Below are positions 21,908-28,800 of a stretch of 64,000 bases of DNA, piece by piece. The notes beneath the pieces are model-generated. The model was not told the origin of the DNA. It ran no database searches and worked only from the letters and a program-made list of their open reading frames with translations. Position numbers and translations under genes: made by a program. The stretch is taken from sequence record SRR31156797_4827. One strand, 5' to 3'. Positions within the stretch are counted from its first letter, which is position 1, and the number at the start of each line of letters is the position of its first letter.

Positions 21908-22912
21908 ATGGATATTTATTTGAAACATGCGATATTACACATTATTGACCGTCAAACTGGTGATCCGGTTTTTTCTCAAGTTGAACTCGATTTGACCACG
22001 GAATACATCCGCGATTATTTGACGAAAAAAATACAGAAACTTGCAACACCGCAAACCAAAACAGGGCGTTTACTCGAAACATCAATGATCGCTCAACTGG
22101 TCAAACAAGCACCCGAAGACTTTGTCGCAGCCAGTGAAGCGATCGTCCAACGGTGGTATGAAGCGTACAAGGAAAGTGAAGATGCACCAAGTGCGGATGC
22201 CTTTGTGGTCTTGTATGAATTTGATACAAGAATGCAGTTGGCGTTTTTGAAGGTCAACTATCAAGACGGCTATACGCACTTTATTGATAATGGGGAAGCT
22301 GGGATCGAAAACAATCTGATTTTGCATCGTGCCTTACTAGCAGGTAAAACTCAAAAGGCCGATGAAGGGATCACAATTGATGTGGAGAGCTTAGACTTTG
22401 AACTGATTGAAAAGAAATATAGCTTTTCAGGTGAAAAATATGCCTACTTTTCAACGAAAGTCATTGATGCCGAACCGATTCCCTCGTTAGAAGAAAACGT
22501 CAAAGTCATCAAAAAAGTAGCGGAAAAAATTGGTCAGAAATTTGAAACACCTACCTATAACGTTGTTGCCGATCTAAAAGAAGCGGTTTACGACACGATC
22601 GAAGAGTCAGGACACATTGATGTCAGTGAAGTGGCGCAAAAAGTCTTTAAAGACAATATTACCGCTCAGCTTTCTTTTCAAGAAGAAGTGGCTGAAAAAG
22701 GATTTGTCAATCAGGCACCAATGATGCGGGATGTCCGTGAGATCTCAGAGAAAAAATTCGGGAAACAAAAACTAAAATTATCTAACGGGATCGAATTGAT
22801 CGTTCCTTTGGATGTTTACCGAGATCCAAATTTGATCGAATTTATCAATAATCCAGACGGAACGATTTCCGTAACGATCAAAAATGTAGAAGAAGTAATT
22901 AATCGGATGTAG
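21908..22912 (+). CDS. Nucleoid-associated protein (YejK/NdpA-like)
   Basis: AILHIID N-terminus, FLKVNY, KQKLKLSNGIELIVP, INNPDGTISVTIKN. Confidence 0.8.
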   Translation: MDIYLKHAILHIIDRQTGDPVFSQVELDLTTEYIRDYLTKKIQKLATPQTKTGRLLETSMIAQLVKQAPEDFVAASEAIVQRWYEAYKESEDAPSADAFVVLYEFDTRMQLAFLKVNYQDGYTHFIDNGEAGIENNLILHRALLAGKTQKADEGITIDVESLDFELIEKKYSFSGEKYAYFSTKVIDAEPIPSLEENVKVIKKVAEKIGQKFETPTYNVVADLKEAVYDTIEESGHIDVSEVAQKVFKDNITAQLSFQEEVAEKGFVNQAPMMRDVREISEKKFGKQKLKLSNGIELIVPLDVYRDPNLIEFINNPDGTISVTIKNVEEVINRM

Positions 22913-22964
22913 GACAAAGGTCTTATGTGTGGATGATGCGGAGCTAACAACATAGAACGAGCAC

Positions 22965-23012
22965 AAAAAAGCAGAGATTCCTCTTTAAGTAATGAGGAGT
23001 CTCTGCTTTTTT
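22965..23012. terminator. Bidirectional terminator
   Basis: AAAAAAGCAGAGATTCCTC / GAGGAGTCTCTGCTTTTTT. Confidence 0.8.
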
Positions 23013-23040
23013 TCTGGATATCTTTGATCAATATCAGCAA

Positions 23041-23400
23041 TTATTGATCGGTCAGTTTCTCAAGGGCGGCTTTGGGAATGTCTTCTTCAGAAACTTCTTC
23101 CCAGCTCAGAACACCTTTATTAGGATTGACCAATAATTTCAAATAGGCACCTTCTCTTAAAGGCGCGGAACGGTGCTCATTCATTTTGACCGTTTTGACT
23201 TCTCCAGAGGAACTGTAAGCGTCTTGTGTGTAACGGTAGACATCTTCGGCAACTCCGTTATCACTAATTTCCGTGTCGTGCTCGCCGGCATCCCTGATGA
23301 CTGTATAGTAGTCACTTCCACCATAGTAATAATGATAAGTAGCAAAACAGCCACCAAGGAAAATTGCTGCAAAAACCAGCGTTGCAATGATTTTTTTCAC
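23041..23400 (-). CDS. YxeA/DUF1093 family exported protein
   Basis: N-terminal hydrophobic anchor; YYGGSDYYT, PLREGAYLKL, KGVLSWEEVSEEDIP. GTG start after GAGGTG. Confidence 0.8.
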   Translation of the reverse strand: MKKIIATLVFAAIFLGGCFATYHYYYGGSDYYTVIRDAGEHDTEISDNGVAEDVYRYTQDAYSSSGEVKTVKMNEHRSAPLREGAYLKLLVNPNKGVLSWEEVSEEDIPKAALEKLTDQ

Positions 23401-23501
23401 ATTTCTCACCTCATCTTCTATTATTCATAAAAATTGTCCTACGTCCAATAGATCGAAAAAAGCAAAGAAATTCTTAGGGATTAGCAGACGAGACATCTCA
23501 C

Positions 23502-23529
23502 TTGACTTTGACTAATTTTGACCTATAAT
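23502..23529 (+). promoter_or_regulatory. tufB promoter overlapped by a CtsR-type operator
   Basis: TTGACT, 16 nt, TATAAT. 23507-23523 reverse-complemented is GGTCAAA-ATT-AGTCAAA versus the CtsR consensus RGTCAAA-NAN-RGTCAAA. Confidence 0.7.
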
Positions 23530-23644
23530 AAGAGTAGATTTAAACTTACAAAAAATAAGTTGATACTTATGAATTTGGAAGCGTAAATCGCAAAATATGA
23601 TTCGAGTCAAAGAACGACTCAACTTTCTCTAGGAGGGAAACAAT

Positions 23645-24832
23645 ATGGCAAAACAACATTATGATCGTAGCAAACCCCATGTTAATATCGGAACGATAGG
23701 ACACGTCGACCATGGGAAAACAACCTTGACTGCTGCTATTACCACAGTTCTTGGGAAAAAAGGACTTGCCAATCCGCAAGATTACGCAAGTATCGACGCG
23801 GCTCCTGAGGAACGCGAACGTGGTATCACCATCAATACTGCCCATGTAGAATACGAAACAGAAAAACGGCACTATGCCCATATCGATGCACCAGGACACG
23901 CGGATTACGTGAAAAATATGATTACAGGGGCTGCCCAAATGGACGGCGCAATCTTGGTCGTATCAGCGACAGATGGCCCAATGCCGCAAACCCGTGAACA
24001 TATTTTGCTTTCTCGTCAAGTGGGTGTGAAACATTTGATCGTCTTTTTAAATAAAACAGACCTTGTCGATGATGATGAGTTGATCGATTTAGTTGAAATG
24101 GAAGTCAGAGAATTGCTGACTGAATATGATTTTCCAGGTGATGACATTCCTGTGATCAAAGGCTCTGCCTTAAAAGCCTTGGAAGGTGACCCAGAGGCTG
24201 AAGCAGCGATCTTAACGCTGATGGATACGGTAGATGAATATATCCCAACACCTGAACGAGACACTGATAAACCATTATTATTGCCGATCGAAGATGTCTT
24301 TTCAATTACTGGACGGGGAACCGTTGCTTCCGGTCGGATCGATCGCGGAACAGTAAAAGTCGGTGATGAAGTAGAAATCGTCGGAATCAAACCTGAAACA
24401 CAAAAAGCAGTCGTGACAGGAGTAGAAATGTTCCGTAAGACGATGGACTTTGGGGAAGCTGGTGATAACGTAGGGGTATTATTACGGGGAATCACCCGGG
24501 ATGAAATTGAACGGGGCCAAGTGTTAGCAAAACCAGGTTCCATCACACCACATACGAAATTCCAAGCAGAAGTCTATGTGTTGACAAAGGAAGAAGGCGG
24601 TCGCCATACCCCATTCTTTAATAACTATCGCCCACAATTTTACTTCCGTACAACGGACGTAACTGGGAATATCGTTTTACCAGAAGGAACGGAAATGGTT
24701 ATGCCTGGTGACAACGTAACGATCGATGTGGAATTGATCCATCCAATCGCTGTGGAAAATGGAACGACCTTCTCCATTCGTGAAGGTGGACGAACAGTTG
24801 GTTCTGGTATCGTGACCACGATCGAAAAATAA
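23645..24832 (+). CDS. tufB: Elongation factor Tu, stand-alone copy (enterococcal tufB type)
   Basis: [19 protein letters not shown] (not DCPGH), [12 protein letters not shown]; not linked to rpsL-rpsG-fusA. EF-Tu identity is certain; the tufB label is an inference. Confidence 0.9.
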
Positions 24833-25038
24833 AAAACAGTGAAACAGTGCTTCCATTATCTGAAGGAGCACTGTTTCCTTTTTCATGTCAAACCAGCAAC
24901 AATTCCTTCATCAGCTTAGGATTGCTTGTTTTTTTCTAAATAATCTTGTGATTTTATTAAGGATTTTTTAGGAGAGAAAAAATTCTAGTCAGCCTGTTCA
25001 TTTCATAGTACGATAGATTCTGACTTAGAAAAGATGGG

Positions 25039-25677
25039 ATGTATTTGATGAGAAAAATTCGACGTTTCCTAGGATTTGTACTGAAGCTTGCACTCTTGGT
25101 GCTGCTGATTGGAGCAGGGGTTTGGGGCTATCGAAACTACACGGCATTGAAAGCTGTCTATGCGTATGAAGCGGAAATCGCACAGCAGACACAAGCCCAC
25201 GACATCTCTGAATATCAGTCTTTAGCAATGAGTATCATGCTGACGGAGTCAAAAGGACAAGGCAATGATCCGATGCAAAGTTCTGAAAGTGTATATGGAA
25301 AACAAAACCAATTTGATACGCCAGAACAAAGCATCGAACAAGGGGTTTCTTATTTAGCCGAGTTGATCGAAAAATCAGAGCAAATGAACTGTGATCTTTG
25401 GACCGCAGTCCAGGCTTATAATTTTGGTACAGATTATATTGATTATGTCGCTGAACGGGGTGGCGTGAACACCTTAGAATTAGCAGAAACATATTCCAGA
25501 GAGGTTTTATCCCCGTTATTAGGCAATGATACAGAACAAACCTATCGTTATTGGGGCATCCAATCGGTCTTTTATAATGGCGGTCATTTGTATCACAATG
25601 GCGGCAACATGTTCTATGCGGATCTAATAAAATTGAACCGATGGAAAATCGATGTTACGGCAGGGTTCTTTTCCTGA
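25039..25677 (+). CDS. Lysozyme-like (PvaA/YddH-type) membrane-anchored protein
   Basis: N-terminal TM helix; ESKG..NDPMQSSES, AVQAYNFG, YHNGGNMFYA. Confidence 0.85.
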   Translation: MYLMRKIRRFLGFVLKLALLVLLIGAGVWGYRNYTALKAVYAYEAEIAQQTQAHDISEYQSLAMSIMLTESKGQGNDPMQSSESVYGKQNQFDTPEQSIEQGVSYLAELIEKSEQMNCDLWTAVQAYNFGTDYIDYVAERGGVNTLELAETYSREVLSPLLGNDTEQTYRYWGIQSVFYNGGHLYHNGGNMFYADLIKLNRWKIDVTAGFFS

Positions 25678-25834
25678 TCGTCACAAAATAACTGAAGTAA
25701 AAAAGCTTGAAATACAAATAGAATATGGTAAAATCATTATGAGTGATTCCGTCTAATTATTCTTCGCACTGATACCTATTAGTGCGTTTTTTTACCTAGT
25801 AAACGATGAATACTTACCAAATGGAGGTGAGTGG

Positions 25835-27670
25835 ATGGCACGAATTCCTCAAACGATCATTGACGACATTCGCGAACGTAGCAATATTGTTGATATCGTG
25901 GGACAGTATGTCCAGTTAAAGAAATCTGGAAAGAATTATTTTGGTTTGTGTCCCTTCCATAATGAGAAATCACCTTCTTTTTCCGTTGCAGAAGACAAAC
26001 AAATTTTTCATTGTTTTGGTTGCGGTCGTGGGGGCAATGTTTACGGTTTTTTGCAAGAGCTTGAAGGCATCAGTTTTCCTGAAGCAGTCGTCAAAGTAGC
26101 AGAAATGAACGATATTCCTCTTGATCCGCAATACCAGCAATCAGAAGGCATCAATGAAGCGACCTCACAAACGAGTCAATTGATTGCGCTGCATGAAAAA
26201 GCCGCCGAGGTCTATCATCACATGTTGGTGAATACGGCTGCTGGCCAAGAAGCGCTTGATTATTTATTGGATCGCGGATTGACGATGGCATTGATCGAAG
26301 AATTCAATATTGGTTTTGCGCCGAATGAACGCTCGTTTTTGGAGAAAGTCTTTTTGAATGAACAAGCCAAAGCTGAATTTTTTCCTGATACAGGGCTCTT
26401 TGTTCAACGAAACGATGGCTCATTGGCAGACCGCTTTTACCAACGAATCATGTTTCCGATCCGTAATCCTCAAGGAAAAACAATTGGTTTTTCTGGTCGT
26501 TGGCTAGCAAGCGAAAAAGTTGGTGATCAAGACCAGCCGAAATATTTAAATAGTCCAGAAACGATCCTTTTCAACAAGCGCGAGGTTCTGTTCAACTTTG
26601 ACAAAGCACGCCGTGCGATGCGCAAAGATGGCCAAGTGTATTTATTTGAAGGATTTATGGACGTGATCGCCGCTTGGCAGGCAGGAATCGAAAATGGGAT
26701 CGCCTCAATGGGGACCAGCTTGACCAATCAGCAGATCGCCCATATCGAGCGAGTGGCACAAGAAGTGATTCTTTGTTACGATGGAGATAGTGCAGGGGTT
26801 GAAGCGACAAACCGCGGGATCGAGCTTCTGCAAAACAATAGTCGTTTGAAATTATCTGTGGTGCGAGTGCCGGAACGGATGGACCCAGATGAGTATTTGC
26901 GCAAATATGGGACAGAAGCTTTTTATAAACTAGCTGTCCACGGCAAAGAAACCGTTTTTGCCTTCAAGATGGATTATCATCGGATGAATCGCAATTTAGC
27001 CAATGAGAAGGAGCAACTGGACTATGTCCAAGTTGTTTTAAATGAATTGCAGCGTGTGGATTCTTTGTTGGAGCAAGACCGCTATTTGACTCAGTTGTCT
27101 ACAGAGTTCAATTTGAGTCGTGAGACCTTGCAGCAGCAGCTCAAGCAAAACCGGCAAGAGCAACGGACGATGCAAGATGTAGCGCCACCGCCGCCAACAG
27201 ACACCCCTGTGGTCTTTACGCCGCCTACACGGCAGCAGCCCAAAACACAGGTGGAAAAAGCGCAAGAATTATTATTGTACCGTTTGTTTCATGACAGTAC
27301 GTTAAACCATCGCTTTCGAGCGAGTGGTATATCCTTTATTCATGATCGTTATCAACAACTGTATCTGCTGTTTGATGCGTATATGGAAACAGAAGAACAC
27401 TTTGTTTTAGCAAAGTTCTTAGATTTTTTAAAAGAAGATTCAATGAAAAAAATGGTGATCGATATTGCAGATCTTAAAGCTTCTGAGGAAGGGACTGAAC
27501 AAGAATTTCAGGACATTCTGCAGGTCTTTCAAAAGTCGGGCATTGCTGAAGAAATCAATCAAAAACGAATCCAGCAGCAAGAAGCAAGACAAATAGGAAA
27601 CCAGCAATTAGAACTTGAACTTGCAATCGAAATCATTGATTTGACCAAACGGTTGAAACAAGCTAAATAG
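25835..27670 (+). CDS. dnaG: DNA primase
   Basis: CPFH...CFGC zinc finger, PKYLNSPET, EGFMDVI, CYDGDSAG, DPDE. Confidence 0.97.
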   Translation: MARIPQTIIDDIRERSNIVDIVGQYVQLKKSGKNYFGLCPFHNEKSPSFSVAEDKQIFHCFGCGRGGNVYGFLQELEGISFPEAVVKVAEMNDIPLDPQYQQSEGINEATSQTSQLIALHEKAAEVYHHMLVNTAAGQEALDYLLDRGLTMALIEEFNIGFAPNERSFLEKVFLNEQAKAEFFPDTGLFVQRNDGSLADRFYQRIMFPIRNPQGKTIGFSGRWLASEKVGDQDQPKYLNSPETILFNKREVLFNFDKARRAMRKDGQVYLFEGFMDVIAAWQAGIENGIASMGTSLTNQQIAHIERVAQEVILCYDGDSAGVEATNRGIELLQNNSRLKLSVVRVPERMDPDEYLRKYGTEAFYKLAVHGKETVFAFKMDYHRMNRNLANEKEQLDYVQVVLNELQRVDSLLEQDRYLTQLSTEFNLSRETLQQQLKQNRQEQRTMQDVAPPPPTDTPVVFTPPTRQQPKTQVEKAQELLLYRLFHDSTLNHRFRASGISFIHDRYQQLYLLFDAYMETEEHFVLAKFLDFLKEDSMKKMVIDIADLKASEEGTEQEFQDILQVFQKSGIAEEINQKRIQQQEARQIGNQQLELELAIEIIDLTKRLKQAK

Positions 27671-27693
27671 CGAACTGAAAGGGGCTTTCTTTC

Positions 27694-28800
27694 ATGGCAG
27701 AAGAAACAAAAAAAACGTATGACAAAGCAGTTGCCGAATACATCCGAGAAAACAAAACAAAGGGGCAAGTTGTTTACGATGACATTACCAATCGTTTAGC
27801 AACGCCTTATACTTTGGATGCTGATGCAATGGACAAACTAATTCAAAAACTGGAGGATTCCGGCATCAGTGTCGTGGATGAAAATGGAGAGCCTTCAGTC
27901 CATAGTTTAAAGAGTAATGAAAAACGACAAGAAACCCAACCTCAAGAAGATTTGTCTGCACCGACTGGTGTGAAAATCAATGACCCTGTGCGGATGTACT
28001 TGAAAGAGATCGGTCGGGTACCGCTTTTGACCGCAGAAGAAGAAGTGGCTCTCGCTCTGAAAATCGAAGAAGGCGACCAAGAAGCGAAACAGCGTTTGGC
28101 AGAAGCCAACTTACGTTTGGTAGTCAGCATCGCCAAACGTTATGTGGGTCGGGGAATGCAATTTCTTGATTTGATCCAAGAAGGAAACATGGGCTTGATG
28201 AAAGCCGTTGAGAAATTTGATTATCGCAAAGGGTTTAAATTCTCGACCTATGCGACCTGGTGGATCCGTCAAGCGATCACTCGTGCCATCGCTGACCAAG
28301 CTCGAACCATTCGGATCCCAGTGCATATGGTGGAAACCATCAACAAATTGATTCGTATCCAACGGCAATTATTGCAAGACTTAGGACGCGAACCGACACC
28401 AGAAGAAATCGGCGCAGAAATGGATTTGCCAACGGAAAAAGTTCGTGAAATCTTGAAGATCGCTCAAGAGCCCGTTTCATTAGAAACACCAATCGGTGAA
28501 GAAGATGATTCTCATCTAGGTGATTTTATTGAGGACCAAGATGCTACAAGTCCGGCAGAGCATGCGGCTTATGAGCTTTTGAAAGAGCAATTAGAAGATG
28601 TATTGGATACGTTAACTGACCGTGAAGAAAATGTGCTACGCTTGCGTTTCGGAATCGATGATGGCCGTACTCGGACCTTAGAAGAAGTCGGCAAAGTCTT
28701 TGGGGTAACCAGAGAACGGATTCGTCAGATTGAAGCAAAAGCGTTACGGAAACTACGCCACCCATCTCGTTCAAAACAATTGAAAGATTTCTTAGAATAA
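27694..28800 (+). CDS. rpoD: RNA polymerase primary sigma factor
   Basis: [48 protein letters not shown]. Confidence 0.98.

Follow-up and report, generated by a model that had tools for sequence, protein, structure and literature searches.

A predicted CtsR operator on the promoter of tufB, a second elongation factor Tu gene, is conserved across most of a bacterial family

CtsR regulons are described as comprising ClpP, the Clp ATPases and a small number of chaperones, and it is established in other Bacillota that CtsR loses its ability to bind DNA at high temperature. The class III CtsR operators of Bacillota, namely those of clpP, clpB, clpE and ctsR-clpC, are the closest described counterparts of the element analysed here, which lies upstream of tufB, a gene for elongation factor Tu (EF-Tu), in a 64,000-nucleotide (nt) stretch of DNA from sequence record SRR31156797_4827 (hereafter the window; positions are counted from its first letter). 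The tufB element is like these operators in its tandem heptad, its 3-nt centre, its placement in the core promoter and its score. In the nearest genome (G001; 4.0 Mb, 88% of sampled words in common with the window), the clpP and clpB boxes are likewise reverse-oriented over the promoter, but their distal heptad itself supplies the −35 element, whereas at tufB the −35 is a separate element and the whole box lies within the spacer. The genes also differ in kind: class III CtsR targets encode a Clp ATPase, a protease or a chaperone, whereas tufB, a predicted target, encodes a translation elongation factor.

Ke et al. (J Bacteriol 182:6913, 2000) are said to have described tufB of enterococci as a second tuf gene and a presumed horizontal acquisition. 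The gene in the window is of the same class, being located outside the str operon, encoding a protein ~80% identical to that of tufA and grouping with streptococcal EF-Tu. What appears to be new relative to the known enterococcal tufB is regulatory: its promoter carries a predicted CtsR operator, and most of the family has kept it. In Streptomyces, tuf3 encodes a divergent extra EF-Tu with conditional, not constitutive, expression, and CtsR is not known to be involved there. Streptomyces tuf3 is like tufB as a divergent additional EF-Tu, but it belongs to another phylum and to other regulatory signals. Escherichia coli and Salmonella likewise have two EF-Tu genes, tufA and tufB, one of them in the str operon, and both copies serve bulk translation. 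According to PMC6822514, nucleotide differences between the enteric copies amount to less than 1.4%, and EF-Tu, which is abundant, owes its name to thermal instability. By contrast with the enteric pair, the two copies considered here differ by 20% at the protein level and sharply in codon bias and synonymous divergence, and a putative stress operator is present on one copy only. Collectively, the comparisons presented below make tufB a well-supported predicted new member of the CtsR regulon, with the operator placed on an unexpected gene.

The predicted tufB promoter consists of a −35 hexamer TTGACT (23502-23507, plus strand) and a −10 hexamer TATAAT (23524-23529, plus strand), which together match the consensus at 11 of 12 positions. 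It ranks at the top of eight promoter-like sites found by a promoter scan of positions 22800-25400, and transcription is predicted, from the position of the −10, to start at ~23536. The letters at 23501-23529 read cTTGACT-TTGACTAATTTTGACC-TATAAT, with a spacer of 16 nt. On the plus strand the spacer letters are TTTGACT-AAT-TTTGACC (23507-23523), the reverse complement of which, GGTCAAAATTAGTCAAA, is the CtsR-type operator GGTCAAA-ATT-AGTCAAA of the minus strand. Its two heptads, separated by 3 nt, show no mismatches to the RGTCAAA direct repeat, and the site takes up the spacer of the promoter, from about position −29 to −13 relative to the predicted start, that is, it overlaps the predicted core promoter of tufB. 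All the letters and coordinates given in the preliminary description of this locus for the −35, the spacer repeat and the −10 proved correct on re-reading. It had also singled out the central A as the sole departure from RGTCAAANANRGTCAAA; the letters are right, but the departure carries no weight, because T stands at this position in 38% of the canonical ctsR and clpP sites of the family (A in 60%) and because the ctsR operator of the nearest genome shares the ATT centre. At up to one mismatch, RGTCAAANNNRGTCAAA occurs once in the 64-kb window, compared with 0.15 occurrences expected, and at least once in 12 of 100 shuffled sequences.

Agreement with the textbook consensus is a poor measure for this family, where the canonical clp and ctsR boxes show one to three mismatches to it, and mismatch counts were therefore replaced by matrix scores. 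The matrix was trained on the upstream regions of ctsR (31) and clpP (30) from the same bacterial family (60 distinct), with no tufB input. Motif discovery by expectation-maximisation, started from 40 random words and with no prior motif, recovered A-GGTCA[A/G]N-A[A/T][A/T]-[A/G]GTCAA, i.e. the CtsR heptad repeat, and a softened version of the resulting matrix was used for scoring. A site of at least 19 bits is present in 59 of the 60 distinct ctsR/clpP upstream regions. Scoring with a CtsR matrix had been proposed in the preliminary description, and on this scale the tufB site ranks like a canonical operator, at 24.0 bits (matrix placement 23508-23524) versus a canonical median of 25.1. The second-best score within the 64-kb window is 12.3 bits, and among 495 background segments of 300 nt none reaches 15 bits and four reach 12.

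The nearest genome encodes a TufB protein 100% identical to that of the window, and the 170 nt upstream of the gene are letter-identical. It also encodes CtsR (PF05848, 121 bits), with a clpC-like gene next after ctsR, as well as clpB, clpE and clpP; within the family, ctsR was found in 132 of 134 genomes and in all 126 of those of good quality. The boxes of the ctsR (GGTCAGA-ATT-AGTCAAG, 23.6 bits) and clpE (GGTCAGT-AAA-GGTCAAT, 24.4 bits) promoters are in forward orientation just after the −10, while those of clpB (GGTCAGT-AAT-GGTCAAA, 24.3 bits) and clpP (GGTCAAG-AAA-GGTCAAA, 25.5 bits) are reverse-oriented over the −35 and the spacer. Together with the tufB site, which takes the fourth place between clpB and ctsR, these make up the top five candidates of this genome, followed by a site of 16.1 bits. 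Each of the four canonical boxes fits the textbook consensus worse than the tufB box does. Perfect textbook matches number two in this genome, one in the tufB promoter and the other at an intragenic site that the family matrix scores at 9.0 bits. Moreover, 15 of the 17 positions of the ctsR operator, GGTCAGAATTAGTCAAG, are the same in the tufB site, including the ATT centre. The second EF-Tu gene of this genome, tufA, follows rpsL-rpsG-fusA, and no box precedes it. Two weaker CtsR-like sites were also recorded in this genome, at C55:33003-33017 (L311; 16.1 bits, the score that follows the top five) and C67:164932-164948 (L012; 14.1 bits).

Conservation was examined in a family sample of 134 genomes from 17 genera of GTDB. 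Their EF-Tu copies fall into two groups, with either at least 86% or at most 82% identity to the window protein and nothing between. A tufB-type copy is present in 100 genomes, and the 300 nt upstream were taken from all 100. Sites of at least 13 bits were found in 94 of these regions, at least 15 bits in 68, at least 18 bits in 53 and at least 20 bits in 31. The 15-bit level is reached by every tufB-type site in genera g1 (8/8), g5 (11/11), g7 (1/1), g8 (2/2), g10 (1/1), g12 (3/3), g13 (23/23), g14 (1/1) and g17 (1/1), and by 15 of 19 in g4, where the others score 14.6-15.0 (one printed as 15.0 falls just short). The corresponding counts are 1/3 in g11, 0/1 in g9, 0/1 in g15 and 1/25 in g3, with the other g3 sites at 10.0-14.2 bits. 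A tufB-type gene from a Vagococcus metagenome-assembled genome has an upstream site of 21.2 bits. Within the genus of the window, both heptads are kept in all eight species; variation is confined to the centre, one −35 and the flanks, the −35 being TTGAC in seven species and TTGAT in one. The tufA-type upstream regions, from both two-tuf and single-tuf genomes, have no CtsR site, all 28 scoring at most 6.1 bits, and the upstream regions of three Streptococcus tuf genes score 2.1-10.5 bits. Hence both features that the preliminary description had singled out for checking were found, namely, the conservation of the heptad repeat upstream of tufB orthologues (8/8 species in the genus, 94/100 in the family at the 13-bit level) and its absence upstream of tufA.

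The tufB box occurs in two promoter architectures. In type I, represented by 70 of the 100 tufB-type promoters, the box is reverse-oriented between the −35 and the −10, following the pattern TTGAC-TTTGACY-NNN-TTTGACS-TATAAT. In type II, represented by 25 promoters including all 23 of g13, a forward GGTCAGNGANGGTCAAT is located a few bases past TAYAAT and the leader is short, which is the arrangement seen at clpE and ctsR. Since the type II box comes after the −10, −35 mimicry cannot account for it there. Information content per column, computed from 45 type I promoters of eight genera (g3 excluded, genus-weighted), is 1.98 bits in the −35, 1.75 in heptad A, 1.03 in the 3-nt centre, 1.67 in heptad B and 2.00 in the −10, which is invariant in all 45; upstream of the −35 it is 0.45 bits and downstream of the −10 it is 0.40-0.73. 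Conservation of the heptads with a dip exactly at the 3-nt centre is not the behaviour of an ordinary promoter spacer. The variation pattern and the existence of two architectures provide support that does not rest on counts of genomes.

The gene under this promoter, tufB (23645-24832, plus strand), is a complete open reading frame for an EF-Tu paralogue of 395 amino acids with three domains (GTP_EFTU, 220 bits; D2, 67 bits; D3, 132 bits), 80% identical to the str-operon tufA product of the nearest genome. It is followed by an intrinsic terminator (24838-24885, plus strand) composed of a 13-bp G+C-rich stem and a U-run, with a folding energy of -19.3 kcal/mol (z -4.4; none of 200 shuffled sequences as stable), which a simple scan had missed because the loop exceeds 8 nt. 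As stated in the preliminary description, tufB is a monocistronic gene with its own terminator, outside the str operon. In a quick maximum-likelihood tree, computed with no bootstrap, the tufB-type and streptococcal EF-Tu proteins are split from the tufA-type by a branch of 0.44 with a support of 100 in the Shimodaira–Hasegawa-like approximate likelihood-ratio test (SH-aLRT). The tufB-type genes of the family form one group (support 84), within which sub-groups mostly follow genera, although one long-branch Lentilactobacillus row is misplaced within it.

Codon usage and divergence were measured in the eight species of the window's genus (tufA from L021 and L046-L052), with the ratio of nonsynonymous to synonymous divergence (dN/dS) of tufB taken from five species pairs. 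The effective number of codons (Nc) ranges from 30.5 to 32.9 in tufA and from 43.9 to 48.8 in tufB, compared with ~35 for fusA and rpsG and 45-55 for neighbour genes. Synonymous divergence (dS) is 0.08-0.21 for tufA and 1.2-1.8 for tufB, while dN/dS is 0.05-0.07 and 0.017-0.022, respectively. TufB is a working protein under strong purifying selection and not a decaying copy. At the same time, the gene is without the codon signature of massive constant expression, which fits conditional expression. Weak codon bias combined with low dN/dS therefore disfavours a plain dosage duplicate; the suggestion, already made in the preliminary description, that tufB is not simply such a duplicate thus gains independent support, as the extreme codon bias of tufA is missing in tufB and yet purifying selection on it is strong.

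The sequence evidence indicates that, most probably, CtsR binds and represses the tufB promoter in this organism. A CtsR dimer sitting at about −29 to −13 would shut RNA polymerase out of a near-consensus promoter and would keep tufB repressed until heat or another proteotoxic stress inactivates CtsR; upon its release, tufB would be co-induced with clpP, clpE, clpB and ctsR-clpC. It is likely, then, that the second EF-Tu is switched on by protein-damaging stress and is not a simple spare copy. Its probable purpose would be to provide new EF-Tu molecules, or a distinct isoform of the protein, once the house-keeping pool is damaged; alternatively, the chaperone-like activity reported for EF-Tu might be what is called for. 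A more far-reaching proposal is that TufB is a dedicated stress-time elongation factor. The family CtsR core regulon would then consist of four protease/chaperone operons plus one translation factor, the link having been kept by selection throughout the existence of the paralogue, with the operator rebuilt in a second architecture when the promoter was replaced. The chances of this broader proposal seem to us evenly balanced.

Three other explanations of the box deserve consideration. The three tandem TTGAC units might be promoter features only, that is, overlapping −35-like hexamers or alternative promoters, with the likeness to CtsR sites due to chance. Indeed, TTTGACY includes TTGAC, so that the reverse complement of the heptad holds the −35 consensus; a weaker alternative promoter, TTGACC-17-TAAACT (23518-23546), takes the second heptad as its −35; and the loose pattern GGTCANNNNNRGTCA is not enriched in the nearest genome, with 18 matches versus 18 for the reversed control. 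However, normal spacers do not show two conserved heptads with a dip at the 3-nt centre, and the 25 forward boxes downstream of the −10 are unusable as −35 elements. Furthermore, the tufB site agrees at 15 of 17 positions with the ctsR operator, which overlaps no −35, and no background segment out of 495 reaches 15 bits, so we regard a chance resemblance as very unlikely. Nor does it seem probable that the operator serves the divergent DUF1093 gene (23041-23409, minus strand) instead of tufB. The start of that gene is 98 nt from the box, and of 30 loci examined 15 have the gene next to tufB, including all eight of the genus, but the box keeps a fixed register with the −35 and −10 of tufB. Moreover, it is upstream of any plausible DUF1093 promoter, so that the bound repressor would not block polymerase, and in type II loci it comes after the tufB −10 and falls within the predicted leader of that gene. 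Together with the lack of conservation upstream of the −35 (0.45 bits per column), this makes an operator dedicated to DUF1093 extremely improbable.

The remaining alternative accepts the repressor but not the stress function: CtsR might repress tufB mainly to silence a horizontally acquired, streptococcus-like EF-Tu, the real role of which lies elsewhere, for example in a moonlighting or surface function or in altered sensitivity to EF-Tu-targeting antibiotics. The grouping of tufB-type proteins with streptococcal EF-Tu in the tree (branch 0.44, SH-aLRT 100), their identity of 85-86% to streptococcal EF-Tu among the matches listed and a tufB codon usage like that of ordinary genes are in line with this view, and moonlighting roles of EF-Tu are reviewed in PMC6822514. 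On the other hand, a near-consensus promoter under a stress-released repressor, maintained in two architectures and in many genera, would be needless for plain silencing, while the dN/dS of ~0.02 means that the protein is in use, and all three EF-Tu domains are intact. Silencing as the main purpose of the operator is thus unlikely.

Several points weigh against regulation of tufB by CtsR as a general rule, or against the strength with which it is supported here. The genomes are related and the trials not independent; therefore, the counts overstate the support. The matrix is derived from just two gene families, ctsR and clpP; the scores for the nearest genome cover the 19 and 18 places picked out by two pattern searches and not every position; and the presence of ctsR and tufA alongside this tufB is read from the nearest genome only. 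Six of the 100 tufB-type genes are without a site of at least 13 bits and have only remnants of a forward box after the −10. Most importantly, in the 25 species of g3 the −10-adjacent heptad has become TCTGATG or TTTGATG while the distal heptad is intact, giving scores of 10-15 bits. Most g3 promoters have TTGGAG as their −35, and the −10 in this genus reads TATTAT or TATGAT. The decayed sequence recurs identically over most g3 species, and none of the 10 g3 loci with flanks has the neighbour genes of the window. On this evidence, CtsR control in g3 may have been weakened or lost, alongside a weaker promoter, and conservation of the predicted operator is accordingly not universal, g3 being the exception. 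Examples from g3 are loci L058-L068, L073-L084, L093 and L105. In two of these genomes another TATAAT-like element is found closer to the gene and may serve as a promoter independent of CtsR.

If TufB is a dedicated stress-time elongation factor, the proteotoxic-stress response would act on elongation capacity directly and by programme, which would explain the presence of two divergent tuf genes in enterococci. Conserved membership of a translation elongation factor in the CtsR regulon would tie protein quality control directly to EF-Tu supply. It would also offer a testable answer to a question standing since 2000, namely, why a second, divergent tuf gene is retained in many enterococci. The group includes clinically and agriculturally important species, and a stress-induced EF-Tu isoform may affect tolerance to heat and host stress as well as the response to EF-Tu-targeting antibiotics. 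A literature search, outside of which were subscription journals and regulon databases, found neither a CtsR-tufB link nor stress induction of tufB in enterococci. Similarly, neither was found in the accessible parts of a heat multi-omics study of Enterococcus faecium and its supplement (PMC10046512), and the accessible parts of PMC11618144, PMC13148053, PMC3842655 and a bottromycin preprint contain nothing bearing on the CtsR-tufB question.

The predicted 5' leader of tufB comprises ~109 nt (23536-23644, plus strand) and can form three hairpins (fold z -3.2 versus shuffled sequences): ACTTA..TAAGT at 23544-23560, GAGTC..GACTC at 23604-23620 and UUUCUCU-AGG-AGGGAAA at 23624-23640, all on the plus strand, the last overlapping the Shine-Dalgarno sequence AGGAGG (23631-23636). 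All three are kept in the genus, where the consensus structure of eight species contains 16 pairs, one of them with a compensatory change, which belongs to the hairpin region just 5' of the ribosome-binding site (23604-23640 in the window). Hairpin 3 is a weak U-rich stem resembling a fourU thermometer; its pairs are broken at two positions in two of the eight species, none covaries, and the type II leaders differ. A search of positions 23400-24950 against Rfam returned nothing above threshold (one snoRNA-like match, E 0.11). An inverted repeat located ~8-25 nt into the predicted leader has the form ACTTA-N7-TAAGT in the window, CTTAC-N5-GTAAG in other genera and GCTTA..TAAGC in one. It recurs in L039-L045 and in most type I loci, the CTTAC-N5-GTAAG form being ~15 nt after the −10. 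Its role could be that of a stem-loop stabilising the 5' end or of another operator.

In two runs labelled as RNA, X1 and X2, the locus is part of a 27-kb and a 6-kb contig, respectively, with flat, DNA-like depth; these contigs behave like DNA and therefore carry no information on transcription. Within 23000-25300, X2, which was obtained from an ant metatranscriptome, departs from the window at 13 positions. The gene order around tufB is aldo-keto reductase (minus strand), NA37 nucleoid protein, divergent DUF1093, tufB, lysozyme-like gene, dnaG and sigA. The lysozyme-like gene and dnaG-sigA, encoding primase and the principal sigma factor, are directly downstream of tufB (25039-28800), and this order is constant in the genus.

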